The notes under the pieces: generated by a model
Told to the model about the DNA's origin: nothing
What the model saw: only the letters and a program-made list of their open reading frames with translations
The model's database searches: none
Made by a program: the position numbers and the translations under genes
Shown: positions 40,024 through 63,962 of the stretch, piece by piece
Numbering within the stretch: position 1 is the stretch's first letter
Layout of the letters: every line of letters starts with the position of its first letter
Source of the DNA: an uncultured virus (IMG/VR IMGVR_UViG_3300009376_000002)
Taxonomy: Duplodnaviria; Heunggongvirae; Uroviricota; Caudoviricetes
Strand: one strand, 5' to 3'
Virus record (IMG/VR): IMGVR_UViG_3300009376_000002
Length of the DNA stretch: 63,962 bases

Positions 40024-42630
40024 ATGCAGCTTGATGAATTTACCGACGTCGCCGGCGACATTATCATGTCGTCGATCCAGAAGGCAAAAAGCTTAAATAA
40101 AGCTCCAGTGCCTGAGTTCATACTTGAAGGTGTCATAGAGCACGCAGATAGCCCTGTGTCTGCAATGATGATCAGCCACAAGATAGACAAGGAAAAGGTT
40201 CTTAGGGAGACTAAGGAATATTTGTCTACGCTCCCTGATGCGCCAGATGTTCATTCGTCTGAAGCGGGCGTTATTACTGTTCACCCGAGACTTGCGGCGC
40301 TTTTAGAGCGCGCCAAGAAGTCAGCTAACGACACCGGGGATGCTTATGTTGATACGCTTACTGTCTTCAAGCAGTTTTACACAGAGGGAACAGACAACAA
40401 GGGTACCCATCTTCTCACTTCTAACGGGATGTCGATGGAGAAAGCAGTATCTTCTTTCAAGAAGATCAGGGGCAACAAGAAGGTCAAGACTCGAAAAGAG
40501 AGGCTAGACTCTAAGGTCCTTGAAAAATACTGCACCAACATGGTTAAGGCTGCTTCATTGGGAGAATTCTCTCCCGTAATCGGTAGAGAGTTTGAGACTC
40601 GAAGAATCATCCAGATCTTATGTAGAAAATCCAAGAACAATCCAATCATTATCGGTGAGTCTGGAGTTGGCAAGACTGCAGTAGTTGAAGGATTGGCACA
40701 GCGGATACACAGAGGTGACGTCCCTGATTTCCTACAGGACTCTGAGCTTTATGAGCTAAGGATATCATCCCTTGTCGGAGGTGCTAAGCACAGAGGGGAT
40801 TTAGAGGAGAGGGTAACTGAGCTCATGGACGTGATCTCCAGCCTTCCCAAGAACATCGTCCTGTTTATCGATGAGATCCACAGCATTGGTAGCACTGGGA
40901 GCGAGACAAGCCTCTCAGACCTTTTTAAACCTGCTCTTAGCAGAAACAAGATTAGGATTATTGGTGCCACTACCCTTGATGAGTACAGAAACTTTATTGA
41001 AAAAGATAAGGCTTTGGAGCGAAGACTCCAGTCTGTCTTTGTAGAGCCGCCAAGTGTTCGTGAGACTGTCGGAATCTTGCGAGGCCTCAGAGATACATAC
41101 GAAGCCTTTCACGGTTTGCACATAAAGGATGCATCGCTTATTACGGCATCTGAGCTATCTGATCGCTATATAACTTTTCGAAATCTTCCTGACAAAGCTA
41201 TTGACCTTATTGACGAAGCTGCAGCAAGAGTAAGAGCAGAGAACGAGATGACGCCTGCTGTAATGTCTGACCTTTCACAGAAGCTCTTAATGATCGACAT
41301 TGAACTTGACTCTCTTCGAAAAGAATCAGATGATGATGCTAAGGAAGAGATTAATGAGCTTGAGAAAGAGCGTGCCAACGCCCAGGAAAAACTTAGTACA
41401 CTCCAGCGAAAATTTGACACGGAAAAAGGTGTGATTGATCGATATCGAAAGGCTAAGGCGGCAAAACTAAAAGTAGAATCCAGGTTGGCAGATGCTCAAG
41501 CCGGCGGCGCTGATAGAGATGACTATTTCCGCATGAAAGTGGAGGATCTACCCAAAGTAGAAGAAGATCTTAGAGATGCCCAGCAAGCTTTCCACCAACT
41601 CCGCCAGTCAGGTGAACTAATGGTAAAAGAGGAGATAAGCCCACTCGAGATAGCTCAAGTGATCTCAGATTGGATCGGTATTCCAGCTGAGAACTTATCT
41701 AAGTCTGATCGAGAGAAGCTCGCAACGCTAAGGGAGGATATCGAGGCACAAGTTTACGGTCAGCCCGATGCTGTGAAAGGCGTATCAGATGCGATCATTC
41801 GTTCTCGTGCAGGCCTCTCAGATGAGTCAAGACCGATCGGATCTTTTCTGTTCTTGGGCCCATCAGGTGTAGGAAAGACATGGCTTGCTAAATGTTTAGC
41901 GAAACTGATGTTCGATGACTACGAGCACATGATTAGAATTGACATGTCAGAATACGGTGAAAAGCATTCTGTGTCTCGCTTGGTAGGCGCTCCTCCAGGG
42001 TACGTCGGTTTTGAACAAGGCGGCCAGCTGACTGAAGCAGTTAGAAGACGACCGTATTCTATTGTACTACTTGATGAGATCGAGAAGGCACACCCAGAAG
42101 TGTTTGATGTTTTGCTTCAGGTCTTAGATGACGGAAGGCTTACGGACGGACAAGGTCGAGTAGTAAACTTTAAGAATACCATTATCATCATGACATCCAA
42201 TATCGGATCGCATCTTTTGCTCGAAGCATTATCCTCGACAGGCGAGGTGTCTAATGCCGTTCGTGAGCAAGTCATCACTTTGCTTCGAGCCAAGTATAGA
42301 CCTGAGATCTTGAACAGAATCGATGAGATCGTTGTGTTCAATCCACTATCCAAAGATCTTCTAGGAAAGATCGCGATCACCTGCTTAGAAGAAGTTAGAG
42401 ATAGGCTGTCTAAGAAGAAGATAAAGATTGAGTGGACAGACCAGCTAATACAATATTTGAACAGCCAGCAGTATGACCCATCCCAAGGTGCTCGAGGAAT
42501 GAAGTCCTTTGTCAAGAAGCACGTTGAGACAGATATCGCCTCTGCCATCGTTCATAATCATGACGTGTCAAGCTTTAAGATTGATGTAGTGGATGATAAA
42601 GTGCAAATTCAACCCGTAGAGAATAATTAG
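40024..42630 (+). CDS. clpB: ClpB-type AAA+ disaggregase
   Basis: Two AAA modules (GESGVGKT/FIDE and GPSGVGKT/LLDEIEKAH), coiled-coil M domain, GAPPGYVG. Confidence 0.92.
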   Translation: MQLDEFTDVAGDIIMSSIQKAKSLNKAPVPEFILEGVIEHADSPVSAMMISHKIDKEKVLRETKEYLSTLPDAPDVHSSEAGVITVHPRLAALLERAKKSANDTGDAYVDTLTVFKQFYTEGTDNKGTHLLTSNGMSMEKAVSSFKKIRGNKKVKTRKERLDSKVLEKYCTNMVKAASLGEFSPVIGREFETRRIIQILCRKSKNNPIIIGESGVGKTAVVEGLAQRIHRGDVPDFLQDSELYELRISSLVGGAKHRGDLEERVTELMDVISSLPKNIVLFIDEIHSIGSTGSETSLSDLFKPALSRNKIRIIGATTLDEYRNFIEKDKALERRLQSVFVEPPSVRETVGILRGLRDTYEAFHGLHIKDASLITASELSDRYITFRNLPDKAIDLIDEAAARVRAENEMTPAVMSDLSQKLLMIDIELDSLRKESDDDAKEEINELEKERANAQEKLSTLQRKFDTEKGVIDRYRKAKAAKLKVESRLADAQAGGADRDDYFRMKVEDLPKVEEDLRDAQQAFHQLRQSGELMVKEEISPLEIAQVISDWIGIPAENLSKSDREKLATLREDIEAQVYGQPDAVKGVSDAIIRSRAGLSDESRPIGSFLFLGPSGVGKTWLAKCLAKLMFDDYEHMIRIDMSEYGEKHSVSRLVGAPPGYVGFEQGGQLTEAVRRRPYSIVLLDEIEKAHPEVFDVLLQVLDDGRLTDGQGRVVNFKNTIIIMTSNIGSHLLLEALSSTGEVSNAVREQVITLLRAKYRPEILNRIDEIVVFNPLSKDLLGKIAITCLEEVRDRLSKKKIKIEWTDQLIQYLNSQQYDPSQGARGMKSFVKKHVETDIASAIVHNHDVSSFKIDVVDDKVQIQPVENN

Positions 42631-42634
42631 TAAC

Positions 42635-42967
42635 ATGGCAAGCACACGCATCATAAATGAACAGGCTTTCGGTCGATCAGACCTGATACGCCCATCTGAA
42701 GCGCACTACATCCTTGTTTACCCAAAGGGAGTGCTTCTTAATAACGTTCTCACAAACATTCGAATCCTGCGAGGTGTCGCTACTGTGTACCAGCGTGACA
42801 CAATTACGAAGTCTGGTAATCGCTCATTCGTACCGATTGAGATTGGATTCATCGTCCCGGAAGGGTATGGCGGACGTGAGAAGTTTGAAGAAGATATGAC
42901 AGCTTCGATCAAGAAGATCAAGGGTGTTTCCGAGCTGAGAAAGCACAAAGCTAACCCCAAGAAATAG
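42635..42967 (+). CDS. Hypothetical protein
   Basis: 110 aa ORF preceded by ATAATTAG (late-type variant). Confidence 0.6.
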   Translation: MASTRIINEQAFGRSDLIRPSEAHYILVYPKGVLLNNVLTNIRILRGVATVYQRDTITKSGNRSFVPIEIGFIVPEGYGGREKFEEDMTASIKKIKGVSELRKHKANPKK

Positions 42968-42995
42968 TGTAAATCACGATCTCGTATGATATAAT
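42967..42995 (+). promoter_or_regulatory. Promoter GTGTAA-N17-TATAAT
   Basis: Exact spacing upstream of the flap endonuclease gene. Confidence 0.7.
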
Positions 42996-43012
42996 CTCTG
43001 CGGAGATAATCA

Positions 43013-43831
43013 ATGCGTGTACTCATTCTTGACGGCCACAATCTTATCCATCGTGCCCGAGCCGGCTACCATCGAGGCGACCACTCAGTAACGTTCATGT
43101 TCTTTAGGTCTCTTCGGCCCCTTGTGGAGAAGATGAACCCTGACAAGGTCTACTTTGTCCTGGAGGGAAGTCCCAAGAAGCGGATCGCAACCGACGCCAA
43201 CTACAAGGCCAATCGAAAGATCGACGAGACAGATCCTAAGTGGCAGGCGATGCAGGACTTCTTTAGGCAGAAAGACGAATGCGTGGAGCTCCTTTACAAA
43301 GCGTTCCCGTTCAGCATTGTCCGCCATCCTGATTTTGAAGCAGACGACATCATTGCTCACTACGCAAGGTTGCACAAGGAAGATGACGTCATCATCGCCT
43401 CAGGTGATTCTGATTTCATTCAGCTGCTAACGGATGAGAACCCGCAGATCAAGCTTTACCATCCGATTAAAAAAGACTTCGTCATCCCTCCTGACTACAA
43501 CTATCTGGAGTGGAAGGCTATTCGTGGTGATGCCACAGACAATGTGCCCGGGATTCCTCGCCACGGTGACAAGACTGCTGAGAAGATCATGCGTGATCCG
43601 GAGCTCTTTGCTAAGAAGATGGAGGATCCTGAGTGGAAAGCACACTTCGAACTCAATCTCAGCTTGATCCGAATCGATCCCTTGACAGAAGATGAGATTG
43701 CCGGCATTCACGTTGTTGAACCGGGCTTACATCCAGGCTTAATCCAAGAGCAGTTTCAGACTTGGGAGTTTAGCTTTGCGTCTAAAGAGAAGCCTTGGAA
43801 TACCTTCGTCCAGACGTTTTCTGCTGTATAA
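43013..43831 (+). CDS. 5'-3' exonuclease/flap endonuclease (PolA N-terminal or T4 RNase H-like)
   Basis: LDG.N, YKANR, EADD, SGDSD and GDATDNVPG. Confidence 0.9.
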   Translation: MRVLILDGHNLIHRARAGYHRGDHSVTFMFFRSLRPLVEKMNPDKVYFVLEGSPKKRIATDANYKANRKIDETDPKWQAMQDFFRQKDECVELLYKAFPFSIVRHPDFEADDIIAHYARLHKEDDVIIASGDSDFIQLLTDENPQIKLYHPIKKDFVIPPDYNYLEWKAIRGDATDNVPGIPRHGDKTAEKIMRDPELFAKKMEDPEWKAHFELNLSLIRIDPLTEDEIAGIHVVEPGLHPGLIQEQFQTWEFSFASKEKPWNTFVQTFSAV

Positions 43832-43871
43832 TTGAACATTTGACAAAGATTGTGATACATAATAGCTGCCT

Positions 43872-44138
43872 ATGAATAATCTTAAAAAACTTTTTAAAGC
43901 CTCCACCCGAGAGATAAAAATCGGGGACACACTTCAAACCGTTAAAACTTACCAGTGCAAGAAAGGGTGCGGATACAACAATTCTCGCCCCGATCCTGAT
44001 AAAAAGACTTGCCCTGGATGCGACTACAAAGAGAAGATTGAGAAGCAGATAGCTGCCGAAGGCACTCTGCGAACCAAGTCTGGTGCCCCCAAAAGAAAAG
44101 GCGGCAACTTTCGTGAAGTAAATAAGGGTGATGATTAG
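43872..44138 (+). CDS. Small Zn-ribbon protein
   Basis: CKKGC...CPGC. Confidence 0.55.
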   Translation: MNNLKKLFKASTREIKIGDTLQTVKTYQCKKGCGYNNSRPDPDKKTCPGCDYKEKIEKQIAAEGTLRTKSGAPKRKGGNFREVNKGDD

Positions 44139-44146
44139 GAGGGCGA

Positions 44147-44950
44147 ATGCCTGAAGGTCCTGAGTGTAGGCGCATGGCGCTCCAGCTATCTGAAGAAGTT
44201 TCAAACAAAAGATTGATCGATATCGTCGTGGAAAGCGGCAGATACACCAAGAAACCCATAGTAGGGATTGATGAGATTCTACAAGAGACACCTTTGAAAA
44301 TTCAGGGTGCCGGAGTTCACGGTAAGTTTATCTTTTTTCTACTGGATAACGAGTGGTCGATCTGGAACACTTTAGGAATGTCCGGTCGATGGTCTAGAAA
44401 CCACGAAAAGCACTCGCGAGTAAGGCTTGTTCTTGATGACGGCCCAGTATTTTTTAATGATACCAGAAATTTTGGGACGCTTAAGTTCGTTCATGGAAAA
44501 CAGCCCATTATTGATAAGCTTAACTCTCTTGGTCCGGACTTGTTAGCAGAAGAATGCACTGATGAAATGTTTATTAAGAGTCTAAGAAGAAAAGATAAAA
44601 AGACCATAGTAGAAGCTTTGATGGACCAGTCAGTGGTATCAGGTATTGGAAACTATGTCAAAGCTGAAGTCCTGTACTTGTGCAAGCTTTCTCCTCACCG
44701 CGTCGTCTCTTCGCTGACTGACATGGACCTCAAGAATTTAAATCTTGCAACTAGGTCTGTCCTAGTTAGTTCTTTTGATAGCGGAGGGGCAACAATCCAG
44801 TCATATAGAAATTTTTATGGAGAGGCAGGAGATGCCTCTCAAAAATTTGCCGTGTATGGTCGAAAGAATGATCCTCAAGGAAGAGGGGTAATTAAAGAGC
44901 AGACTAAGGATGGAAGAACAACGCACTGGGTTCCGGAAGTTCAAAAGTGA
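44147..44950 (+). CDS. mutM: Fpg/Nei DNA glycosylase, zincless-finger type
   Basis: MPEGPE, GK, LGMSG, D.RNFG, H2TH GIGNY and GRTT; no C-terminal Cys4. Confidence 0.85.
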   Translation: MPEGPECRRMALQLSEEVSNKRLIDIVVESGRYTKKPIVGIDEILQETPLKIQGAGVHGKFIFFLLDNEWSIWNTLGMSGRWSRNHEKHSRVRLVLDDGPVFFNDTRNFGTLKFVHGKQPIIDKLNSLGPDLLAEECTDEMFIKSLRRKDKKTIVEALMDQSVVSGIGNYVKAEVLYLCKLSPHRVVSSLTDMDLKNLNLATRSVLVSSFDSGGATIQSYRNFYGEAGDASQKFAVYGRKNDPQGRGVIKEQTKDGRTTHWVPEVQK

Positions 44951-44986
44951 CATTTACTTAGCCACACGTCTAAGATAATATCACAT

Positions 44987-45215
44987 ATGATTAACGTAGC
45001 CCACATAGGGTCAGGATCTATCTCAGAATACCAGATCGTGACTATGAAAAGCTCTTCCTTTAAAAAGGTCGCCGACTTTGAAGCTCTTGATACTAATATG
45101 GCTTCTTTTTACAAGACTTATAGGCAGGTTTTGTCTGTGACCTATGGGCTCAAACCTCGAGAACTTATACTTTTGCCGAAAGTAAGCAGTATGTTAAAAC
45201 TATGGAGATCAGCAA

Positions 45216-45229
<14 letters not shown>
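44987..45229 (+). CDS. Hypothetical protein
   Basis: 80 aa ORF. Confidence 0.45.
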
Positions 45230-47743
<2,514 letters not shown>

Positions 47744-47754
47744 TATGTACTTAC

Positions 47755-47934
47755 ATGAAAGACAAGTTCTTAAGATTTTATCCTATCATGATCTCTTTCT
47801 GGGGATCCTGCCTTATTCTTGACATTATTTTTCTGCCTTTTACAGGGATGCGACTCGCCTGGCCTATTTGCATGGCCTATTATGCGATGAGGTGGCACGA
47901 CATGAAAGACTGGAGCGATAAATTAGATGAGTGA
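47755..47934 (+). CDS. Small membrane protein, 59 aa (not in the ORF track)
   Basis: MKDKFLRFYPIMISFWGSCLILDIIFLPF...; fills the intergenic gap. Confidence 0.45.
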   Translation: MKDKFLRFYPIMISFWGSCLILDIIFLPFTGMRLAWPICMAYYAMRWHDMKDWSDKLDE

Positions 47935-48364
47935 TTGGCGATGTTTAGAGGGCGCGCCAAGAGATATTAAATCTCATTTGTCAAAATTTCTTAATAAGGG
48001 ATATGAGCTGCACGTAGGCTGTGATTCCCACCAGTACTCTGACTACACACGCCTTGTCTCAGTTATCTGCCTTCGAAAAGGACCAAATGGTGTAATAACT
48101 TTTCGAACTGTCCTCAACGAAAAGCCTTCATCTAGCATATACCTAAAACTTCAACGCGAAGTATTAAAAGCGATCGAGATCGCTCAGCTTGCCGGGGATC
48201 TGGGATACGAAAACATTACAGTGCATCTAGATATCAACCCAGATGACAAGTATATTTCTAACAAATTTTATAAAGAGTTTGTAAACATGGTGAAAGGATG
48301 TGGGTATAAATGCATTACGAAACCAGATGCATTTGCAGCATCCATAGCAGATATGTTTACGTGA
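47927..48364 (+). CDS. YkuK/DUF458 RNase H-like protein
   Basis: VGCDS, LQREV, VHLDIN and KPDAFAAS.AD. Confidence 0.75.
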   Translation: MSDWRCLEGAPRDIKSHLSKFLNKGYELHVGCDSHQYSDYTRLVSVICLRKGPNGVITFRTVLNEKPSSSIYLKLQREVLKAIEIAQLAGDLGYENITVHLDINPDDKYISNKFYKEFVNMVKGCGYKCITKPDAFAASIADMFT

Positions 48365-48371
48365 GGTACAT

Positions 48372-48761
48372 GTGAAAAAACTACTACAGACAACAAGACA
48401 GAGAATTGATGCCCTTACAGCTCTTCAAGACATCACCCTTCAGCAGAGAGAGAACGTAGTCCAGGCAGGACAAAGCCATGCAGACAGTGCTTCAAATCAG
48501 ACTGCCATCCAGGTATCTGAAAAATGGGCAAATCTTCGAGCATCCGATGCATTCTCTCGAGGCAAATCTCTTGGGTATGCAAATGCATGTAATGATTTCC
48601 TGGCAATGCTTGATGCGTTGGCGTCGTCAATATCTTCTGAGGCCGCTCATCTCGAAGAGCTTTTTGTGAAAATGGAATCATTTATTGAATCCGAACCAGA
48701 GGATGATGCCAGCGAGGACGACTTGGTCCCTTTGGGCTTAGGCGAGAGCTCTACAGGCTAG
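48372..48761 (+). CDS. Hypothetical helical protein
   Basis: GTG start with GAGG RBS. Confidence 0.55.
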   Translation: MKKLLQTTRQRIDALTALQDITLQQRENVVQAGQSHADSASNQTAIQVSEKWANLRASDAFSRGKSLGYANACNDFLAMLDALASSISSEAAHLEELFVKMESFIESEPEDDASEDDLVPLGLGESSTG

Positions 48762-48928
48762 ATCTCATAAAGCGCGCATACCTAGCCCTTTTCAGTTTGC
48801 CAGATTACAAAAGATCGATGCTACAGCAAGAGGTAGTCCGAGTTAGAAATAGAATTCGGTACTTTGAAAATCAATCTTAGAAGTTTCCTTTTTGATCCTC
48901 TATTTATATGCGTAAGGATATCTTGTAA

Positions 48929-49345
48929 ATGAGTAGTCAGTTTTCACCTGCAGCCGGAGTCGTGATCTTAAAGCATATGGACGGAGATTATCATGTTCTT
49001 TGTCTTAAGACAAAAAGTGGCAAATATGATTTAACCAAGGGGATTATCGACCCGGGTGAAGATCCTTTTGAGACCGCCCTGCGCGAAGCCTACGAAGAAG
49101 CAAACATCTCAGAGATCGATTTTCCTTTTGGTAGGCAGTCCCTTCACCATGATGCATGTGAGATGTTTGTAGGGATAACAACAGAAGAACCTGAGATACG
49201 CCCAAACCCCCACAACGGAGTGCTTGAGCATACTGGCTACAGGTGGATCCCCATCTTAGATGCAGTAAATTCAGACAGGATCAAGGGATTTCTGCAACCT
49301 TCTGTTATGTTTGCTTACAACCTCATTAGAGATAAACAACTTTAA
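48929..49345 (+). CDS. NUDIX hydrolase (Ap4A-hydrolase-like)
   Basis: KGIIDPGE...TALREAYEEA Nudix box. Confidence 0.85.
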   Translation: MSSQFSPAAGVVILKHMDGDYHVLCLKTKSGKYDLTKGIIDPGEDPFETALREAYEEANISEIDFPFGRQSLHHDACEMFVGITTEEPEIRPNPHNGVLEHTGYRWIPILDAVNSDRIKGFLQPSVMFAYNLIRDKQL

Positions 49346-49365
49346 AATTTAATGTAATATCGTGC

Positions 49366-49791
49366 ATGGATACTTGGAAGCCACCTCGATCGCCCTACAA
49401 GCTTATTCAAGAGGATCTTTATGATGACCCTTGGAAAGTGCTGGTTGCTTGCGTCTTTTGCAACCTTACAAGGCGGAATACAGCAGAGCCCTTGCTTTGG
49501 CAGTTCTTCTCTGACTATCCTACACCCTTTGCTGCATCTAGTGCAGATATCAAGCAACTTGAAAATCTGCTCAAGCCAATAGGCCTCAGTTCACGCCGGG
49601 CAAAAACGCTTAAGAAGATGTCTAGCGAGTATATTTCTATTGACTGGAAAGAGCCGATTGAGCTTTACGGCATAGGAAAATACGGTAACGATGCATGGAA
49701 AATATTTTGCACGAATGACTGGAAAAGCGTTACACCTAAAGATCATGCGCTAAGCTGGTATCATACGTGGTTATTGGAAAATTTCAACTAA
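49366..49791 (+). CDS. MBD4-like HhH-GPD mismatch DNA glycosylase
   Basis: SPY.LIQE.L..DPW...AC...N.T, LYGIGKYGND and V.P.DH.L..Y..WL. Confidence 0.8.
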   Translation: MDTWKPPRSPYKLIQEDLYDDPWKVLVACVFCNLTRRNTAEPLLWQFFSDYPTPFAASSADIKQLENLLKPIGLSSRRAKTLKKMSSEYISIDWKEPIELYGIGKYGNDAWKIFCTNDWKSVTPKDHALSWYHTWLLENFN

Positions 49792-49818
49792 ATTCATAAT
49801 TAAGATAGGAATACTAAG

Positions 49819-50004
49819 ATGAACGACCAGGAAATTAAGAACCTAATACAGATTAGAAAATACATTATTGAGTGTCACGATAGTCTCGACGGCGCCGGAC
49901 ACCCAACAAGCGCTATGGTAAAACAGTCTGATGTTGCGCATGAATACACACAGCTTGTCAAGATGCTTGACGGTCTACTGAAACCATATGTTAATTTTAA
50001 TTAA
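49819..50004 (+). CDS. Hypothetical protein
   Basis: 61 aa ORF preceded by ATAATTAA. Confidence 0.5.
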   Translation: MNDQEIKNLIQIRKYIIECHDSLDGAGHPTSAMVKQSDVAHEYTQLVKMLDGLLKPYVNFN

Positions 50005-50025
50005 AGCATAGCAGGAGAAAAGAAG

Positions 50026-50409
50026 ATGCCCTCAACCACATCTAGGTCAATGAAAGTGTCAGGAAAGCGCTCCCCAAGAAAACCTGAAGTCGCAAGAGAT
50101 CCCGATCCCTTGCCACAAGACAAGAAGAAAAAGCCTGCAGCCACGAAACCAGCTGCAAAACCTGCAGCTCAGAAGAAGAGCCGCGCCAAAAAGAAAGTAA
50201 CTTCTCCCGAGGATGCTATTCTGATGTCCTCTGCTGTCAATCCTGACCTTGAAAAAGCTGTTAAGCCTAAAAAGAAAGCGCCAGCAAAAGCTTCTACGAA
50301 AAAGGCCACATCTAAGAAATCAGCAGAGAAGAAGCCAGGATCCAAGAAATCTGCCGCGGGGACTAAAGCTAAAAAACGCACAACGAAAAAGTCTTCTAAG
50401 AAGTCATGA
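50026..50409 (+). CDS. Lys/Ala-rich histone H1-like basic protein
   Basis: KPAA and KK repeats. Confidence 0.7.
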   Translation: MPSTTSRSMKVSGKRSPRKPEVARDPDPLPQDKKKKPAATKPAAKPAAQKKSRAKKKVTSPEDAILMSSAVNPDLEKAVKPKKKAPAKASTKKATSKKSAEKKPGSKKSAAGTKAKKRTTKKSSKKS

Positions 50410-50421
50410 TGTGAGAGGTAA

Positions 50422-50889
50422 ATGAAGGTTCAGATTGCTTTTTACAAAGCAGAACCGGAGAATTGGAGAACACGCTTCATCCGATGGTGGACACAGAGTC
50501 CATATTTGCATGCTGAGCTCATTATTCAAGATCACTTTGCAGTCGGCATAAGCCCAGAAGATGACTCAGAAGTGAGAATGAAGCATATTATCATCGACTC
50601 AGACTGGGAAACCCTAGATATTCATCTCGCAGACGATCAGTATTTTAACATCCTGAGATTTTTCGAAAAGACCAAGGGGCAGAAATATGATTGGGTTGGC
50701 ATGCTCCTCTCGCAGTTTACACCTTTTTCTATAAAGCATGATCGAAAATGGTACTGCTCACAGTGGATAGCTCATGCGCTAATGATCGCAGGCGTCTTTC
50801 CAGTCACATATGAAAAGATTACTCCGGCAAAATTACACAGTATGTTGCTGGAGACAAGCCCTGCAGAGATCTCTAAAGATCCCCCTTAG
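50422..50889 (+). CDS. Permuted papain-like NlpC/P60 (YiiX-type) enzyme
   Basis: SPYLHAEL (His), KYDW and WYCSQW (Cys). Confidence 0.7.
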   Translation: MKVQIAFYKAEPENWRTRFIRWWTQSPYLHAELIIQDHFAVGISPEDDSEVRMKHIIIDSDWETLDIHLADDQYFNILRFFEKTKGQKYDWVGMLLSQFTPFSIKHDRKWYCSQWIAHALMIAGVFPVTYEKITPAKLHSMLLETSPAEISKDPP

Positions 50890-50921
50890 GCTCTAAGGGA
50901 TTTACTAGGAATGTTTAGCGG

Positions 50922-51263
50922 ATGAAACTAAGCCTTCACAACCTAAAGCACAAGATTGCCTTTTGGGCTTCAGCAAATCTTAAGCGCCTATGGAAGCGTT
51001 ACGGGCTTCCCTTGTTGATTATCTTCGTTGTGTGGGAGATCATCGAGGACGTCATCTTCCCTTTGATCTTCGCGTGGCTTGGTGCCAATGTTAATCCCGC
51101 TTTCTTTGCAGGTATACCAGTAGCTTGGCTGCTGTGCCTGCACCCTATCGCCGTGCCGCTCATCTGGTGGCTCTACTGCTTCGTTCTACGAAAAGATAAG
51201 TGTGAGCACGGCAAAGCCAAAAATATATGTCAGGAATGCTTATCACATGAAATACGTAGCTGA
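50922..51263 (+). CDS. Membrane protein
   Basis: Two to three hydrophobic helices. Confidence 0.6.
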   Translation: MKLSLHNLKHKIAFWASANLKRLWKRYGLPLLIIFVVWEIIEDVIFPLIFAWLGANVNPAFFAGIPVAWLLCLHPIAVPLIWWLYCFVLRKDKCEHGKAKNICQECLSHEIRS

Positions 51264-53691
51264 TCTTAGTAGCCTCCGCCTCGAAGATATTGACAAGGTG
51301 GGTGGAAAATCCGCATCACTTGGAGAGATGATCCAGGAGCTAACACAGTTAGGGGTCAACATTCCCGGCGGCTTCGCGGTCACTGTTGATGCTTATCGAG
51401 AGTTTATCACTGCTAACGGGCTGGAAGATGAGATACGTCGCCTGATCGGTGAGTGCGATGTTAATGATCTTGTCCAACTTCGAAAGACAGGCTCCCGGAT
51501 CCGTGAGATCATTCGTGAAGGTGAGTTTCCTGAGCACATCCGCGAGGAAATCAAGACCGCCTATCATAACCTGTCGCAGCGTTATGGCAACGAGATCACC
51601 GATGTTGCAGTGCGCTCATCAGCCACAGCAGAAGATCTACCCGATGCATCCTTCGCAGGCCAGCAGGAAACGTTTCTCAATGTTCGTGGCTGGAAAGGCG
51701 TCCTCACCGCGGTGCGAAACTGCTTTGCTTCGCTCTTCACAGACAGGGCGATATCTTATAGGGACAACTTTGGTTACGATCACTTCGATGTAGCTCTGTC
51801 AGCCTGCATCCAGAAGATGGTGCGCTCTGACTTAGGCGCCTCAGGCGTGGCTTTCTCACTGGACACTGAGTCAGGTTTCCCAGATGTTGTCCTAATCAAC
51901 GGCTCCTGGGGATTGGGCGAGATGGTAGTGCAAGGTGCTGTGTCACCTGATGAGTTCTTGGTTTTCAAACCTACCCTCAAGAAAGGCCACTCCTCCATCA
52001 TCGAGAAGAAGATGGGCGAGAAGGATCAAAAGATGATCTACTCAGACAATCCTGGTGACAGGACAAAGATCATCAACACCAACCCTGAGCTAAGAGATAA
52101 CTTCTGCATTCCTGATGAGACAGCTCTGCAGTTGGCTGACTGGGTGTGCAAGATCGAGGATTACTACACAGGCATGAAGGGCCACTGGTGCCCGATGGAT
52201 GTGGAGTGGGCAGTGGACGGACTAAGCGGCAATCTTTACATTGTTCAGGCCCGCCCCGAAACCATACACTCTCAAAAGCGAAAAGATCACTTGGTCGAAT
52301 ATAAGATCAATGATGACAATCGAGAATCGCGCTTGGTCGGGCACGGTGTTGCAGTTGGTGACGGGATTTCTTCTGGGAAGGTGCGCGTCATGTATTCTCT
52401 GGACGGTCGCGATGGCACGATGGACGAGAAAGACTTCGAGGACGGGGATGTGCTGGTCACTGAGATGACCGACCCTGACTGGGAACCCATCATGAAGAAA
52501 GCCTCAGGCATCATCACCAACAAGGGCGGTCGAACCTGTCACGCAGCTATTGTGGCACGAGAGATGGGCATTCCTGCCATCGTGGGTGCAAAAGGCTTGG
52601 ACGGAAAGCCGGGAACCGAGCGTTTAAACACCGGACAAATTGTGACAGTGTCTTGCGCTGAAGGTGATGTGGCGAACATCTACGACGGCATCGTGCTTTA
52701 CGATGTGGAAAAGACAGATCTCGCGGATCTTCCCAAGACAAGAACACCGATCATGATGAACGTTGGCTCGCCCGACCAGGCTTTCAAGTTCTCTTCCATT
52801 CCCAATGCTGGAGTAGGCCTGGCTCGGGAAGAGTTTATCATCAACAACTACATTCAGGCCCACCCACTGGCGCTGCTGCAGCACAGAGACATGGATGACC
52901 CTGAGCTGACCGAGAAGATTGAAGCACTGACGCAAGGCTATGACGATGAAGAAACGTTCTTCGTGAAGCGCCTTTCCTACGGTATTGCCAAAATCGGAGC
53001 AGCCTTCTATCCCAATGAAGTTATCGTACGCTTCAGCGATTTCAAATCCAATGAGTATCGAGGCTTGCTAGGTGGTGAGCACTTTGAACCTGAGGAAGAG
53101 AACCCAATGCTCGGTTGGCGCGGTGCGTCACGCTACTACTCCCCGGAATACCGAGAAGCATTTGGCTTGGAGTGCAAAGCGATCCGTCGAGTCAGAGAAA
53201 AGATGGGATTGAAGAACGTCACAGTGATGATCCCTTTCTGCAGGACAGTTGGGGAGCTTCATAAAGTTTATGATGTCATGAAAGTGTACGGCTTGGAACG
53301 AGGCAAAGAAGATCTTCGTGTGTTCTTGATGGCAGAGCTACCTTCCAACGTGATCATGGCGACAGAGTTTGCCAAGCATGTGGACGGATTCTCGATTGGT
53401 AGCAATGATCTTACGCAGCTTACCCTAGGGCTTGACAGAGATTCTGAGCTTGTCCAGCACTTGTACGACGAGAGAGATCAAGCAGTAAAGACGATGCTGT
53501 CAATGGTGATCTGTCAAGGCAAGGCATCCGGCGTGAAGGTTGGAATATGTGGTCAAGGACCATCTGACTTTCCGGACCTGGCACAGTTCCTGGTCGAGCA
53601 AGAGATAGACTCTATCTCAGTTACTCCTGACAGCGTGCTTAAAACAACACGCGCCATTTATGAGATAGAAAATACTGAAATAATCCGATAG
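51247..53691 (+). CDS. ppsA: Phosphoenolpyruvate synthase (pyruvate, water dikinase)
   Basis: VGGKSASLGEM, RSSATAED, QARPET, GGRTCHAAI and GFSIGSNDLTQL. Confidence 0.95.
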   Translation: MKYVADLSSLRLEDIDKVGGKSASLGEMIQELTQLGVNIPGGFAVTVDAYREFITANGLEDEIRRLIGECDVNDLVQLRKTGSRIREIIREGEFPEHIREEIKTAYHNLSQRYGNEITDVAVRSSATAEDLPDASFAGQQETFLNVRGWKGVLTAVRNCFASLFTDRAISYRDNFGYDHFDVALSACIQKMVRSDLGASGVAFSLDTESGFPDVVLINGSWGLGEMVVQGAVSPDEFLVFKPTLKKGHSSIIEKKMGEKDQKMIYSDNPGDRTKIINTNPELRDNFCIPDETALQLADWVCKIEDYYTGMKGHWCPMDVEWAVDGLSGNLYIVQARPETIHSQKRKDHLVEYKINDDNRESRLVGHGVAVGDGISSGKVRVMYSLDGRDGTMDEKDFEDGDVLVTEMTDPDWEPIMKKASGIITNKGGRTCHAAIVAREMGIPAIVGAKGLDGKPGTERLNTGQIVTVSCAEGDVANIYDGIVLYDVEKTDLADLPKTRTPIMMNVGSPDQAFKFSSIPNAGVGLAREEFIINNYIQAHPLALLQHRDMDDPELTEKIEALTQGYDDEETFFVKRLSYGIAKIGAAFYPNEVIVRFSDFKSNEYRGLLGGEHFEPEEENPMLGWRGASRYYSPEYREAFGLECKAIRRVREKMGLKNVTVMIPFCRTVGELHKVYDVMKVYGLERGKEDLRVFLMAELPSNVIMATEFAKHVDGFSIGSNDLTQLTLGLDRDSELVQHLYDERDQAVKTMLSMVICQGKASGVKVGICGQGPSDFPDLAQFLVEQEIDSISVTPDSVLKTTRAIYEIENTEIIR

Positions 53692-53751
53692 AACGACAGC
53701 TGAGTATAATGCTGTAGTCTAAGACATAGTTATTAATAACTGTGAGGTCAA

Positions 53752-55587
53752 ATGAGAAGATTTCGTCTCGGTAACACACCACCACAAACTCTTGCGATCT
53801 GGGCGCTAGCGCTCGGGCTGATCTTTATTTTGATAGCGCTCCCTGGCGCTCCGCGCAACCAAGCAAGACACGTTAGCTATACTGAAATGATCCAGTATGT
53901 CAAGGAGCTTCCTTCTGATAGGGAGGGCTCTGCAAAGCTTATCATTAGCGGAGACAAGTGGGAGCTGCACCAGAAAGACGACCCGCTTGTCATAAAGACA
54001 ACTGGGCCTGTCACCGAAAGCCTTCTAGAGCTAGCTCAAAAACAGCATCCAGGATTGCGCTTGGTTATCAAGCCCGCAGAGCCACCATCTGCCTTTTGGT
54101 CGTTAATTATTGCCATCTTACCTTTCCTCTTCCTTGGCTTGCTGTTTTGGTTCTTCATGCGAGGCATGATGAAAGGGCAGGGAAGAGCTATGGACTTCAA
54201 CAAGAGCAAACATACTCTGATGGCACCAGGGGAGAATGACAAGCGCTTCACTGACGTTGCGGGTTGTGATGAAGCCAAGCAAGATCTGGAAGAGATAGTT
54301 GAATATCTCAGAGAGCCTGCTAAGTTCTACAAGATCGGTGCTAAGCTTCCAAAAGGTATGCTTCTAGTCGGCCCACCAGGCACAGGCAAGACACTGCTGG
54401 CGAAGGCACTGGCTGGCGAAGCAGGTGTGCACTTCCTCACTATCTCAGGTTCCGACTTTGTGGAGATGTTTGTAGGTGTTGGCGCCGCGCGCGTACGCGA
54501 TCTATTTAAAGACGCTTCCTCTTTCGCACCCGCCATTGTTTTCATCGACGAGATCGATGCCGTAGGCCGCCAACGAGGTGCAGGTATGGGCGGAGGCCAC
54601 GACGAACGTGAGCAGACACTCAATCAGCTCCTGGTGGAGATGGACGGTTTCGCTGAGAACAGTGGTATCATTGTCCTAGCCGCATCTAACCGACCCGATG
54701 TCCTGGATCCTGCCCTGCTCAGGCCCGGTCGCTTCGATCGTCGTGTAACTGTTGGACGCCCTGACATAAAAGGCCGCGCAGAGATCCTGAGAATACATCT
54801 GAGGGACATTCCTCTGTCCCCGTTGGTGGATATTCAAGTTGTGGCTCGTTCCACACCAGGAATGACAGGAGCAGATTTAGCTAATCTGTGCAACGAGGCA
54901 GCACTCGCTGCAGCCCGGGAAAGCCGTGAAAAGGTGGAGCCGCAAGATTTTGAGCTAGCTCGAGACAAGGTCACGATGGGATCTCCTCGCAAGTCGATGG
55001 TGATGTCCGACGAGCAGAAGCTGGCGACCGCCCGACATGAAGCCGGTCATACTGTCGTAGCTTTCCACACCAAAACGTCAGATCCCTTGCACAAGGTGAC
55101 CATCATTCCACACGGAGGTGCCTTGGGATTGACGATGCAGTTACCCGAAGAGGACAAGTATTGCGCCACTCAGGAAGAGTATGAGGACAGGATCAAGGTG
55201 CTGCTGGGCGGATATCTGGCCGAGAAGATGTACTACGGTGACAAAGGATCTACTACAGGTGTAAAGAATGACCTGCAAAGAGCCAAAGCGATCGCAGCTG
55301 GCATGGTTAAAGAGTTTGGCATGTCTGAGCTTGGACCAATCTACAACTCCTCAGGAAATGACAATGTGTTCTTGGGCAGAGAGATGTCTATGTCTAGGAG
55401 AGGTGATATCAGTGAAGAGGTATCGTCTTCAATTGACCGTGAAATCAGAAGCATTATTGAGGCATGCATGGATAAGGCCAAGGGCATCTTGCTGCACAAC
55501 AAGATCGCAATGGACAAGCTCGTGGATGATCTAATGGAGCATGAGACATTAAACGCCGAGCAGATCAGCGAAGTATTATCCAGCTAA
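53752..55587 (+). CDS. ftsH: ATP-dependent zinc metalloprotease FtsH
   Basis: Two TM helices, [21 protein letters not shown] and HEAGH. Confidence 0.95.
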
Positions 55588-56565: not shown

Positions 56566-56915
56566 TGTTCAAGGTAATACTTCTTCTCGCTGGTCTTCCT
56601 TTCTTTCATCCGGAGAAAGAGATTAAGTGCCCGAAGTATATGCCTGGATCAAACATTCCTGTACCCAACGGTGTTGTATTTCAATACACGCGCGAGCAGT
56701 GGCGAAACAACCAGATGAGATGCTACTGTGAGACTGTTAAGCATGTTGAAGACATGTGCATTCGAGCAGGATATAATAAGTCACGATGTGTCGCAAAAAC
56801 AAACGTGTGGATACAAGAGAACTTTCCCGTAATCCCTAATCCAGATGGAGGCGGAGGCAATAATGAAAGAGATGGCCGCGCAAACTTTATCCTTAACATC
56901 AGGACCGTTCCGTAA
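56565..56915 (+). CDS. Cys-rich putative secreted protein
   Basis: Short hydrophobic N-terminus and five Cys. Confidence 0.5.
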   Translation: MFKVILLLAGLPFFHPEKEIKCPKYMPGSNIPVPNGVVFQYTREQWRNNQMRCYCETVKHVEDMCIRAGYNKSRCVAKTNVWIQENFPVIPNPDGGGGNNERDGRANFILNIRTVP

Positions 56916-57333
56916 GCGAGGAATGGCGCTCGCCATCACTCTGATGATGCTCGTGGTTATCTCCATGAGCGCAGTGATGCTGTGGAATAGTACTTATTTA
57001 GAGACTCTAATTGCAGGCAATCGACGCAGAGCGATGCATGCAAAACACTCAGCAATGTCAGGTATCAACCACTTCATGGCGATGAAAGTTTACGACTCCG
57101 ACGTTCGAAATATGCTGGGTGATCGAAGCAAGGGTGAGCTTATAGAGCTTACTCATATCCCGGGAACGAAGCAATTCTATAAAGTAGAAGTCAGTACTTG
57201 CTGCGACCGCAATGGGCAAATTTTACCTGAAGATATGTTCAGAGTGATCTCCACGGGTTATTATGGAACCAAACCTAATGTGATGGCCGAATCTGTTGTC
57301 GAGGCCTTCATTCAAACTAGAGAAGAGAGATAA
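56863..57333 (+). CDS. PilX-like minor type IV pilin
   Basis: RKRG-MALAITLMMLVVISM prepilin-like cleavage site; A...A.SG; C-terminal FRVISTG...SVVEA. Confidence 0.7.
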   Translation: MKEMAAQTLSLTSGPFRKRGMALAITLMMLVVISMSAVMLWNSTYLETLIAGNRRRAMHAKHSAMSGINHFMAMKVYDSDVRNMLGDRSKGELIELTHIPGTKQFYKVEVSTCCDRNGQILPEDMFRVISTGYYGTKPNVMAESVVEAFIQTREER

Positions 57334-62629: not shown

Positions 62630-62639
62630 CTGCTTTTCC

Positions 62640-62696
62640 AAAAAAAATAAAAAAAAGTGAAAAAAAGAGGAAACTTTTCCGTAAAACTACCGGTAA
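62640..62696 (+). promoter_or_regulatory. Sigma28 (FliA/WhiG)-like promoter with an upstream A-tract (UP-like)
   Basis: GAAACTTT (62670-62677)-N11-ACCGGTAA (62689-62696) versus consensus TAAAGTTT-N11-GCCGATAA. Confidence 0.5.
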
Positions 62697-62732
62697 TAGA
62701 TATAGGACACCCAAAAATGAAAGGTCCTTTAG

Positions 62733-63554
62733 ATGGTAAACGGCATAAACTCACTTGGAACGCGCCTTAACAAGGCATTAGACAACCTTGGATACCCGGA
62801 CGCGGTAGGTGACGTCGCAGGCGCGCAGCTCGACCTGGCAACATTCAACGTCTCAGGCGCAGTTCAAAACTGGAAAGATCTCTTCTCAGGTCAAACCACG
62901 CAGCAGTTTTTAACCAAACCGTCGCAGGCATTAGCAAGATCACGTAGGCTTCACGGTCACACATACGCGCAGAATACTGCACGCACCACGATGAACTCCG
63001 CTCTCCAGGCAATGGACGGTGAGATCATGAACCTTATGCGCGCAGCAGGCGAGACAGGTGCTGATCTACTCAGAGGCCAGATCCGCAAGCAGGGCGGTGA
63101 CATGGAGTCGCTGGTCGGCCCCGGTGCCTCCTTTGAGGACATGCTTGCAGCGTTCCTCTTCAAGCAGATGCGCGACTCCGAGAAAGAGCTTAAGTCACTC
63201 ATGCAAAAGTATGAGTCACTGAAGAAGGGCAAGAAGAAGGGTGGCATCTTCGGCGGCATCAAGTCCGCGTTCAAGTCACTCGCTTCGAAGGCTGTCTCCC
63301 TCGGCGGCGGCATGCTCGGCGGCCTGGTTGGTGGCCCGATCGGCTCACGACTTGGTGCTGCTTTTGGCGGAGGAATAGGTAACTCCCTCTTCGGCAAGAA
63401 GAAAGCTTCCGGTGACGTCGATCACAGCCGTTCAGTGATCAACTTCAAGATCCAGCAAGCGATGAACAAGCGCAAGGAGATGTATGACATGATCTCTAAC
63501 GTTCTGAAGACGATGCACGATATGAGCATGACTTCCATTAGAAACATCAAGTAA
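62733..63554 (+). CDS. Type III secretion substrate/translocator-like protein (myxobacterial-type)
   Basis: Coiled coil, Gly-rich hydrophobic GGMLGGLVGGPIG segment, C-terminal FKIQQAMNKRKEMYDMISNVLKTMHDMSMTSIRNIK. Confidence 0.6.
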   Translation: MVNGINSLGTRLNKALDNLGYPDAVGDVAGAQLDLATFNVSGAVQNWKDLFSGQTTQQFLTKPSQALARSRRLHGHTYAQNTARTTMNSALQAMDGEIMNLMRAAGETGADLLRGQIRKQGGDMESLVGPGASFEDMLAAFLFKQMRDSEKELKSLMQKYESLKKGKKKGGIFGGIKSAFKSLASKAVSLGGGMLGGLVGGPIGSRLGAAFGGGIGNSLFGKKKASGDVDHSRSVINFKIQQAMNKRKEMYDMISNVLKTMHDMSMTSIRNIK

Positions 63555-63564
63555 GGAAATAGAG

Positions 63565-63962
63565 ATGACTGCAATTAACAGGCTTAACAACGGCGGCTCA
63601 ATCCGAATCAACTCCGCACCAGCAACCACACGACAAACTCCGCGTAACGACTTCGGAGCAATGATAGGTCGAGGCGTGGCAAACGGCGCAGGTGCAGTAG
63701 CAGGCGCAGTTGGAGTTGCAGCTCCCTTCATCCCTGGAGGAGCAGTCGTAAGTTCCACCGTCAGTCAGGCAGCCGGCGCGATCGGCAACTACGCTAACGA
63801 TGGTGCGATGAACGTGCCCGGTCAAGCTCCTGGCTTGAACACTCCGATGGGACAAGGCGGAGGATCCTCCACACAATCCCTGATGGACCAGACGAAGCAG
63901 ATGCAGGAGATGCAGATGAGCTTCAACTTGCAGTATCTCAACCTGCAGAACAAGATGCAAGG
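63565..63962 (+). CDS. Second type III secretion substrate-like protein, 3' truncated (not in the ORF track)
   Basis: MTAINRLNNGGSIRIN...RQTPRNDFG...GAVGVAAPFIPGGAVVS...QMQEMQMSFNLQYLNLQNKMQ; open to the window end. Confidence 0.6.
   Translation, partial: MTAINRLNNGGSIRINSAPATTRQTPRNDFGAMIGRGVANGAGAVAGAVGVAAPFIPGGAVVSSTVSQAAGAIGNYANDGAMNVPGQAPGLNTPMGQGGGSSTQSLMDQTKQMQEMQMSFNLQYLNLQNKMQ

Follow-up and report, generated by a model that had tools for sequence, protein, structure and literature searches.

Phages carry host metabolic genes, of which cyanophage psbA is the type, and prophages carry effectors of type III secretion systems (T3SS). In Myxococcus xanthus, the T3SS named T3SS* (MXAN_2434-2464) is required for prey lysis (PMC10433427, PMC12075869, PMC12428579) and gathers at contacts with prey (PMC12075869), and bradymonads are predicted to use T3SS* as well (PMC11509652). 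[quoted passage not shown] How such a 'needleless' machine delivers anything is an open question in that literature. Here we describe a cassette of three genes, A, B and C, which begins near the end of a 63,962-nucleotide stretch (the window; bases 156539-220500 of the 235,681-bp uncultured virus record IMGVR_UViG_3300009376_000002, hereafter G000) and whose products are predicted to be exported structural parts of a host T3SS*. A-B-C resemble psbA-type genes and prophage effectors in that they appear to be host-derived, to be kept by selection in a phage and to act upon machinery of the host; they would differ in being structural subunits of a secretion machine and not enzymes of metabolism or effectors for injection. 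This viral kit of exported T3SS parts is an arrangement without precedent in the searches run. Phage-borne T3SS structural genes were unreported in the literature searched, in which coverage of subscription journals was limited, and the words 'T3SS' and 'needle' are absent from the main text of a 2026 survey of 790 myxophages (10.64898/2026.09.14.751636), the supplements of which may list such genes.

Gene A (P0001, 273 aa) occupies 62733..63554 on the plus strand and follows a probable ribosome-binding site at 62720..62725 (+), which is of the GGAGG type in relatives. Gene B (P0002, 160 aa) runs on the same strand from 63565 to the end of the window at 63962 and for another 85 nt, to genome position 220585. 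Gene C (P0003, 133 aa; genome 220585-220986, +; L001:5086-5487) lies wholly beyond the window, and its start overlaps the stop of B. An earlier prediction, made from the window's sequence alone, had described A and B as a two-gene operon of T3SS translocator- or substrate-like proteins; the operon actually holds three genes. Both co-oriented reading frames are present with all the motifs it quoted and are GC-richer as stated (53.9% in A and 54.5% in B, against a median gene GC of 45.1% over 184 genes of at least 120 codons); among the same genes they rank 8th and 14th in GC at third codon positions.

Gene calling on G000 yielded 269 genes. Among the 55 proteins scanned against PHROGs, matches were found to terminase, portal, head protease, major head, two tail sheaths and baseplate, and also to DNA polymerase, primase and helicase, while A, B and C matched none. 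With more than 200 kb and with terminase, portal, protease, capsid and sheath, G000 is a marine jumbo myophage, its record being ~70% complete (CheckV). The cassette is located among small accessory genes, with at least ~80 kb between it and the genes identified as head or tail genes. Inspection of the downstream sequence, which the original prediction had advised, revealed gene C and then small phage-type genes again. The upstream junction, around position 62630, is bridged without a single difference by contigs of runs X2 and X4 from two studies, and the downstream junction by an X2 contig. A prophage junction or misassembly, with host chromosome downstream, was therefore rejected, given the bridged junctions, the surrounding phage genes and the presence of the same trio in related phages. 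We regard the cassette as almost certainly real and phage-borne. No homologue of the E-, G- or H-like genes of the cellular B loci was found in this ~70% complete record, nor any sigma-70 region 2 over the cut-off, and core export genes were not searched one by one; as far as found in G000, the cassette holds predicted exported T3SS parts only.

Homologues of the cassette genes lie in T3SS loci of Myxococcota, as the prediction had stated, and not apart from such loci, which it had named as grounds for giving it up. With homologues at E<1e-50 and an order conserved in other phages, chance is excluded. In the long T3SS* locus of the Myxococcus type, as seen in G232, the order is E-like, B, G-like, H, FliA, SctI and SctJ, followed further on by SctL, SctN, SctQ, SctRSTU, LcrH and SctV. 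Around cellular B we likewise found a small E-like protein, B, a tetratricopeptide repeat (TPR) protein, a 130-aa protein, a FliA-like sigma factor and the C homologue. Among the 55 cellular B loci with room downstream, a G-like gene comes next in 33 (29 of them with an E-like gene before B), SctI in 9 and neither in 13, most of these 13 being non-Myxococcota records. SctF needles with YscE/YscG-type chaperones (YscE-YscF-YscG, AscE-F-G, CdsE-F-G) are encoded in the same order, and because the succession is that of Aeromonas ascE-ascF-ascG-ascH-ascI-ascJ, B fills the needle slot, its host neighbours being those expected of a needle gene. The likeness extends to the G-slot gene, which matches the CdsG/SctY/LcrH models weakly, and to the E-slot gene, the product of which has 79-120 aa. 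Members of the B family differ in that, at 150-210 aa, they exceed the ~85-aa SctF needle by an N-terminal extension and a hydrophobic stretch and score below the needle cut-offs.

In short loci of the M. xanthus T3SS(2) type (MXAN_5643-5654), a B paralogue (B') stands directly before sctI-sctJ, and homologues of B and C head this locus as they do the long one; the B-C adjacency is all that the phage keeps of the host needle-slot neighbourhood. The trio differs from T3SS* in being carried by a jumbo myophage in the order A-B-C, with chaperone and sigma factor not found, and the host A homologue occupies the slot after sctU-hypothetical-LcrH. A total of 905 B homologues were found, the named ones belonging to Myxococcota or Deltaproteobacteria, and the B family matched 251 of 301 Myxococcota genomes (G182 is counted in this tally only); a tblastn search of B against an annotated phage collection (50,697 records) returned nothing. 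In M. xanthus, sctQ is MXAN_2445 (PMC10196010), and in G232 B lies 11 genes back from sctQ; if G232 has the DK1622 gene order, the M. xanthus homologue of B is probably MXAN_2434. The B family is a candidate needle for the 'needleless' T3SS*, and B and A together challenge the published view of this system as lacking needle and translocon. In the literature searched, no paper since 2020 combined Myxococcus, SctF and T3SS.

We further compared B with known needles, for which the cut-offs are 29.4 bits (PF09392) and 41.7 bits (TIGR02105). The C-termini of 38 B family members gave four matches to PF09392 (best E 1.8e-4), six to HrpA and four to HrpF; their commonest Pfam match, Arg_decarb_HB (20/38), was read as a chance helical match. 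Two distant B-slot proteins reached 27.9-28.1 bits to PF09392 when scored alone and passed in a genome-wide search. In a genome-wide search with PF09392 a B gene came first in G139 and G232, and no B gene was matched in G001-G003. At E<=0.02, PF09392 matched 56 of the 301 genomes, with its sole match inside a listed B gene in 11 of them (a count picked by eye from the 150 B matches listed), and many of the remaining matches were A-type or short LcrH-flanked genes. Alignments by hhalign to single AscF, HrpA, AopB and AopD sequences were all insignificant (E 0.08-0.3), and that to AscF, although it falls on the needle C-terminal helix, is weightless alone. PDB sequence searches with A, B, the B C-terminus and C identified zero T3SS proteins, matches to a lectin and to designed proteins being compositional. 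Neighbours of B in the ESM Atlas included needle, HrpA and HrpE at 0.78-0.89 and serve as leads only.

Phage B is 62-64% identical to the host copies, and its C-terminal helix is almost identical to theirs. B has a long N-terminal extension, and its Gly/Ala hydrophobic stretch is clear: the 19-residue Kyte-Doolittle maximum is 1.81 and windows of at least 1.0 start at residues 31-56; in neither A nor B does a hydrophobic window start in the first 30 residues. Ten of the first 25 residues of B are S, N or T, with coil to residue 29 in a low-confidence AlphaFold2 (AF2) model that has a mean predicted local distance difference test score (pLDDT) of 50, one long helix at residues 102-159 and no hairpin. 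Foldseek found zero matches for this model and, for the AF2 model of A, zero at E<=0.001, and the folds were uninformative. We then modelled the last 66 residues of phage B in complex with the host G- and E-like proteins, together with three controls. The complex scored 0.90 against 0.00 for the best control, the runs agreed in at least 84% of contacts, and the partners had a pLDDT of at least 68. Of 157 solved complexes 116 attained the mark, as did 2 of 215 mismatched pairs, counts that are only roughly valid here. In the model, B residues about 127-160 lie in the groove of the TPR chaperone, which supports binding of the B C-terminal helix to the host chaperone.

The C-terminal helix of B was also seen at the end of other proteins (L023, L024, L027, L028, L030-L032 and L034-L037); these come from one archaeal bin and from records with the labels Acidobacteriota, Chlorobiaceae, Ginsengibacter or Acidimicrobiaceae, and where checkable they lack E/G neighbours. 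One phage B (L046:9503-9955), the companion A and C of which are ordinary, has diverged at this otherwise fixed helix (long branch, 0.75; dN 0.43 in the last 45 codons versus L223), which may reflect relaxed selection or another host.

Gene C is predicted to encode an inner-rod, SctI-like subunit, as judged by the position of its homologues before sctJ and by weak matches to hidden Markov models (HMMs). The homologues are directly upstream of sctJ in the long loci of G232 and G139 and in the short locus of G232; in the closest host genomes, sctJ and the C homologue are on separate contigs. PF17001 matched C at E 0.004 (18.1 of 32.4 bits) and NF038054 at E 0.01 (16 of 39 bits), both below cut-off, and these SctI models match phage and host copies alike only weakly (E 0.002-0.04). 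From typical SctI, C is set apart by this score, by a long variable N-terminus and by being phage-borne. Phage C is ~35 residues shorter at its N-terminus than the 167-aa host form and is 77-81% identical to the host genes over the C-terminal 69-75 residues. A wider virus search for C by degenerate DNA pattern recovered three already known contigs only. In contigs of two RNA runs we identified one exact 166-nt piece in gene C and scattered pieces of relatives, which are not evidence of transcription.

Gene A is predicted to encode a T3SS substrate of the LcrH-chaperone slot, like a tip or translocator protein. Its host homologues (365-371 aa, 55-57% identical to phage A) lie directly after sctU, a hypothetical gene and an LcrH/SycD-like TPR gene; the TPR gene precedes A in G001, G002, G015 and G045 and matches LcrH_SycD at E 8e-7 (G001) and 2e-7 (G002), below cut-off. 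On this position next to an LcrH/SycD class II chaperone gene, A would be a tip/translocator-slot subunit, much as aopB/aopD come after acrH in the translocator operons (compare SseD/SctB, SctE, LcrV, EspA and NolX). The original prediction of translocator- or substrate-like proteins is supported, with the refinement that B suits the needle slot better than that of a translocator and that C is the rod. SseD matched 8 of 39 A family members (best E 7e-4) and SctF 4 of 39, all below cut-off; for P0001 itself SseD gave E 0.9, far from its 130-bit cut-off, and AopB and AopD were insignificant by hhalign. Atlas neighbours of A at 0.77-0.85, including needle, NolX, EspA and LcrV clusters, are again leads only. 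The hydrophobic stretch that had been claimed for both proteins is weak in A (maximum 1.14, residues 182-205), and the disordered, S/N/T-rich N-terminus, which fits B, is a poor description of A, where six of the first 25 residues are S, N or T and helices begin at residue 8. The AF2 model of A (pLDDT 58) has a helical N-domain, a helix at 134-165, a Gly-rich, weakly hydrophobic region (pLDDT <50) and a needle-like C-terminal helix at 228-272. VIA-align placed MxiH (6rwy_L) at rank 34 (Z 8.2, root-mean-square deviation 1.7, 72/73 aligned), level with generic helical hairpins and so uninformative. The last 34 residues are common to A and B (hhalign 95.8%), and A may therefore belong to a filament and not to a pore.

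All phage copies of A that were aligned are without a domain of ~95-105 residues present in the host form. A motif of this domain occurs in 15 of 20 cellular A rows, including the four nearest host copies, and in 0 of 9 phage rows; the lost segment sits between conserved helical parts, and the A paralogues of cells come in widely differing lengths and numbers. Separately, Myxococcus-type long T3SS* loci were seen to carry needle-sized genes of 71-74 aa (some longer) flanked by genes for LcrH chaperones, with as many as six copies in tandem (G292; sites include L189:496-1707, L196:1498-1776, L198:1405-1671, L184:1492-1872 and L162:6128-6352). Two of these genes match PF09392 over nearly the whole model (E 3e-5 and 7e-5). 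They offer another needle candidate for the 'needleless' system and occupy the slot taken by A in the host lineage. A, B and C themselves look like distant variants of known T3SS proteins and were not filed as members of those families.

In very GC-rich loci, the argument rests on genes confirmed either by HMM or through frame-aware gene calling. In a tree of B (43 rows), 13 phage rows grouped with five marine Myxococcota metagenome-assembled genomes (MAGs; G001, G002, G015, G024 and G045) at 99/98 support. In a tree of A (29 rows, quick method), nine phage rows formed one branch (100) inside four full-length host copies (100). By homology, the trio originated in this five-MAG lineage, and the lineage is the putative host; a Myxococcota source had been proposed, and the nearest relatives are these small marine genomes and not Myxococcus. 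Host A comes from the sctU-LcrH operon and B and C from another, so that two loci contribute. Besides a flagellum, the five MAGs encode a second T3SS, which is non-flagellar and scattered, with SctJ and a second SctR/FliP in all five, SctN over cut-off in four of five, TadE in five of five and two to four secretin matches per MAG; SctV was over cut-off in G001, and only the flagellar FlhA was found in G002. Given its T3SS* and TadE genes, we infer that the host is a predator.

Upstream of A we identified a putative copy of a sigma-28 (FliA-like) promoter at 62670..62696 (+), with a -35 box GAAAC (62670-62674), a 15-nt spacer and a -10 box CCGGTAA (62690-62696). It is preceded at 62640..62668 (+) by an A-tract that may act as an UP element; similar A-tracts occur 5′ of A in related phages. 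The host consensus upstream of B, C and A genes is GCAAC-N15-(C/G)CGATAA, the -10 half of which resembles the sigma-28 consensus, and a FliA-like sigma gene lies in the host B/C operon. The strict host motif was found before 28 of 58 cellular B genes, 6 of 20 C genes and 0 of 94 chaperone or neighbour genes (E/G/H), counts that include kin and possibly a few repeats. Among phage loci with the 5′ end of A, all 30 have the motif, in the exact host form (7), with one change (1) or with two changes (22). The window's promoter is of the two-change form and is the only site in G000 that fits a relaxed pattern (0.05 expected), a pattern set after the site was seen. One looser sigma-28-like match at genome position 126949, upstream of the window in the virion gene region, may be chance. 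The T3SS sigma-28 promoter of the host thus appears in copy before the cassette, and promoter activity is predicted.

The trio is present on five IMG/VR contigs of three types. Among 44 metagenome loci found by alignment search with A, many of which are near-identical strains, A is directly followed by B in 29, of which 24 also carry C; four end in or just after a short A, nine have a long cellular A and two are cellular-type fragments. In the 11 cellular-type loci B never follows A, though several end soon after A, and the order A-B-C was unseen in the cellular loci examined. The neighbourhood of the cassette changes from one phage clade to another; other genes that these clades have in common with G000 are at 28-96%. 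One phage type has a 320-aa gene between A and B (L002:7035-7997), HNH/homing-endonuclease-like by eye. From 13 phage pairs per gene, the ratio of nonsynonymous to synonymous substitution (dN/dS) was 0.055-0.106 for A (11 pairs), 0.022-0.151 for B (7) and 0.049-0.130 for C (9), the remainder being saturated or identical. The last 45 codons of A showed zero amino-acid changes between the window and five relatives at a gene-wide dS of 0.45-0.89. As read from these alignments, the cassette is old and maintained by purifying selection.

What might the phage gain? That A, B and C enter the T3SS* pathway of the host is probable. We tentatively favour, at somewhat under an even chance, that the phage supplies the host machine with exported parts. 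On this proposal, a phage lineage captured the rod (C), the needle-slot subunit (B) and the LcrH-class tip/translocator-like subunit (A) from two host operons and joined them into one operon behind a promoter read by the host T3SS sigma-28. During infection the host sigma would switch the operon on, host chaperones would bind the products (YscE/YscG-like for B, LcrH-like for A), and the host export gate would secrete A, B and C, which would be built into working machines, so that the prey-lysing apparatus stays supplied once host gene expression declines. Cyanophage psbA, which keeps photosystem II supplied, is the analogy. Phage location, origin from the host lineage, purifying selection, gene slots and promoter match are the observations from which the proposal starts; it is suggested because only exported parts and no E-, G- or H-like homologue were found in G000, because the genes come from two host loci and are the same ones that bear the promoter motif, and because purifying selection acts on proteins in which the assembly helix of B is host-like and, in the model, docks in the host TPR chaperone. 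Several points weigh against it. Expression, export, assembly, a working machine and a benefit from A-B-C are our inference. No phage protein reaches a T3SS family cut-off, phage B matches none of the curated SctF HMMs at all, and hhalign of B with a single real needle is insignificant (E 0.08). The modelled complex resembles the solved YscE-F-G/PscE-F-G trimers and may have passed by that likeness, and TPR grooves readily bind amphipathic helices. With ~30% of G000 not covered by the record (~70% complete), chaperones may be encoded in the remainder; both boxes deviate from the host consensus in 22 of 30 phage promoters; and monophyly of phage B (79/88) is neither shown nor rejected. As for predation, Kil and T3SS* co-occur only in Cystobacterinae according to a review (PMC12428579). 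The domain loss in A and the shortened C fit a crippled or remodelled part equally, and purifying selection would likewise preserve the interfaces of a jamming protein.

Jamming of the host system or remodelling of a receptor would explain why A and C are shortened no less well than delivery of working parts does. It is conceivable, though unlikely, that the phage proteins are decoys that occupy host chaperones and the export gate, or cap rods and needles with A as a dead tip, and so turn T3SS* off, whether to spare resources, to prevent leakage or to counter a role in defence. The ~100-residue deletion in A is fixed in 9 of 9 phage tree rows and absent from the nearest host copies, C is shortened, modelled B keeps its chaperone-binding face, and the promoter would time decoys to the host system; yet one poison subunit would be enough, whereas three genes from two operons were kept together to dS saturation, and their assembly helices are host-like, not altered. 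Rather improbable is a form of superinfection exclusion, in which a T3SS* filament or tip serves as phage receptor and swapped subunits without an exposed domain block later phages while the machine may still work. The segment lost from A, lying between conserved helical parts, is surface-domain-like, cellular A paralogues differ much in length and in number, and the same phages carry a PilX-like pilin gene, but the internal rod C would need no replacement, and both surface exposure of the filament and phage binding are assumed for a system published as without secretin (PMC3459982). Use in the virion, with A, B and C co-opted as ejection or channel proteins across the host envelope, perhaps via the host export ring, is very unlikely. 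Helical proteins with hydrophobic stretches do broadly resemble ejection proteins, but the distance from the head and tail genes, the changing neighbourhood and the host-type promoter argue otherwise, and a tape-measure or ejection protein was rejected on that distance and on the lack of PHROGs matches. The reading of the cassette as an artefact (misassembly or prophage junction), or as passive cargo in the form of host DNA of recent uptake that has no role, has next to no probability: its GC is above that of most phage genes, but other runs bridge the junctions, A and B adjoin in 29 of 44 loci in an order unseen in the cellular loci examined, and selection is purifying.

Returning to supply of exported parts, a bolder and, on balance, doubtful picture is that Myxococcota T3SS* builds a filament from a needle family that has diverged (B, of the MXAN_2434 type) and is capped by LcrH-chaperoned A, and that marine jumbo phages carry a host-sigma-controlled kit, complete for these exported parts and with an edited tip, by which an infected predator would go on lysing prey through a phage-specified needle, the phages thereby farming host predation. 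If true, a phage with structural exported parts wired to a host sigma factor would be a new viral way to steer marine bacterial predation, and the novelty of viral steering would stand whichever of supply, jamming or remodelling is right. For the question of delivery by T3SS*, the phage genes single out exported subunits and point to one gene in the laboratory model (probably MXAN_2434) and to the 71-74-residue needle-like genes.

Other genes of these phages were also noted. A minor-pilin-like gene at window position 56845-57333 scores above the Pfam cut-off for the PilX N-terminal domain (E 7e-8) and has relatives close to the cassette in L038, L200, L214, L224 and L225; a second host surface machine may be targeted. 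Small proteins with a common N-terminal 'MKIT..L..II.EE' helix form a large family (L001:5539-6009 and many in G000, L038, L224 and L226), of which the one member tested matched nothing in PHROGs or Pfam. Host-like genes for a Clp-type ATPase, GroEL, a PEP-synthase-like enzyme and an FtsH-like protease were identified at window positions 40024-55587, and those downstream of the cassette include DnaJ-like and M50 peptidase genes. A vWA protein with PF11617 metal-binding repeats (L001:16391-17710, minus strand; genome 231890-233209) fits the Myxococcota host assignment, this repeat being presumably common in myxobacteria. Finally, a phage-borne DUF444 - SpoVR - PrkA trio, all over Pfam cut-offs, was found at L153:6359-10813 (genome 26359-30813) and also in L225 and L226, in the last of which it stands directly upstream of the cassette.

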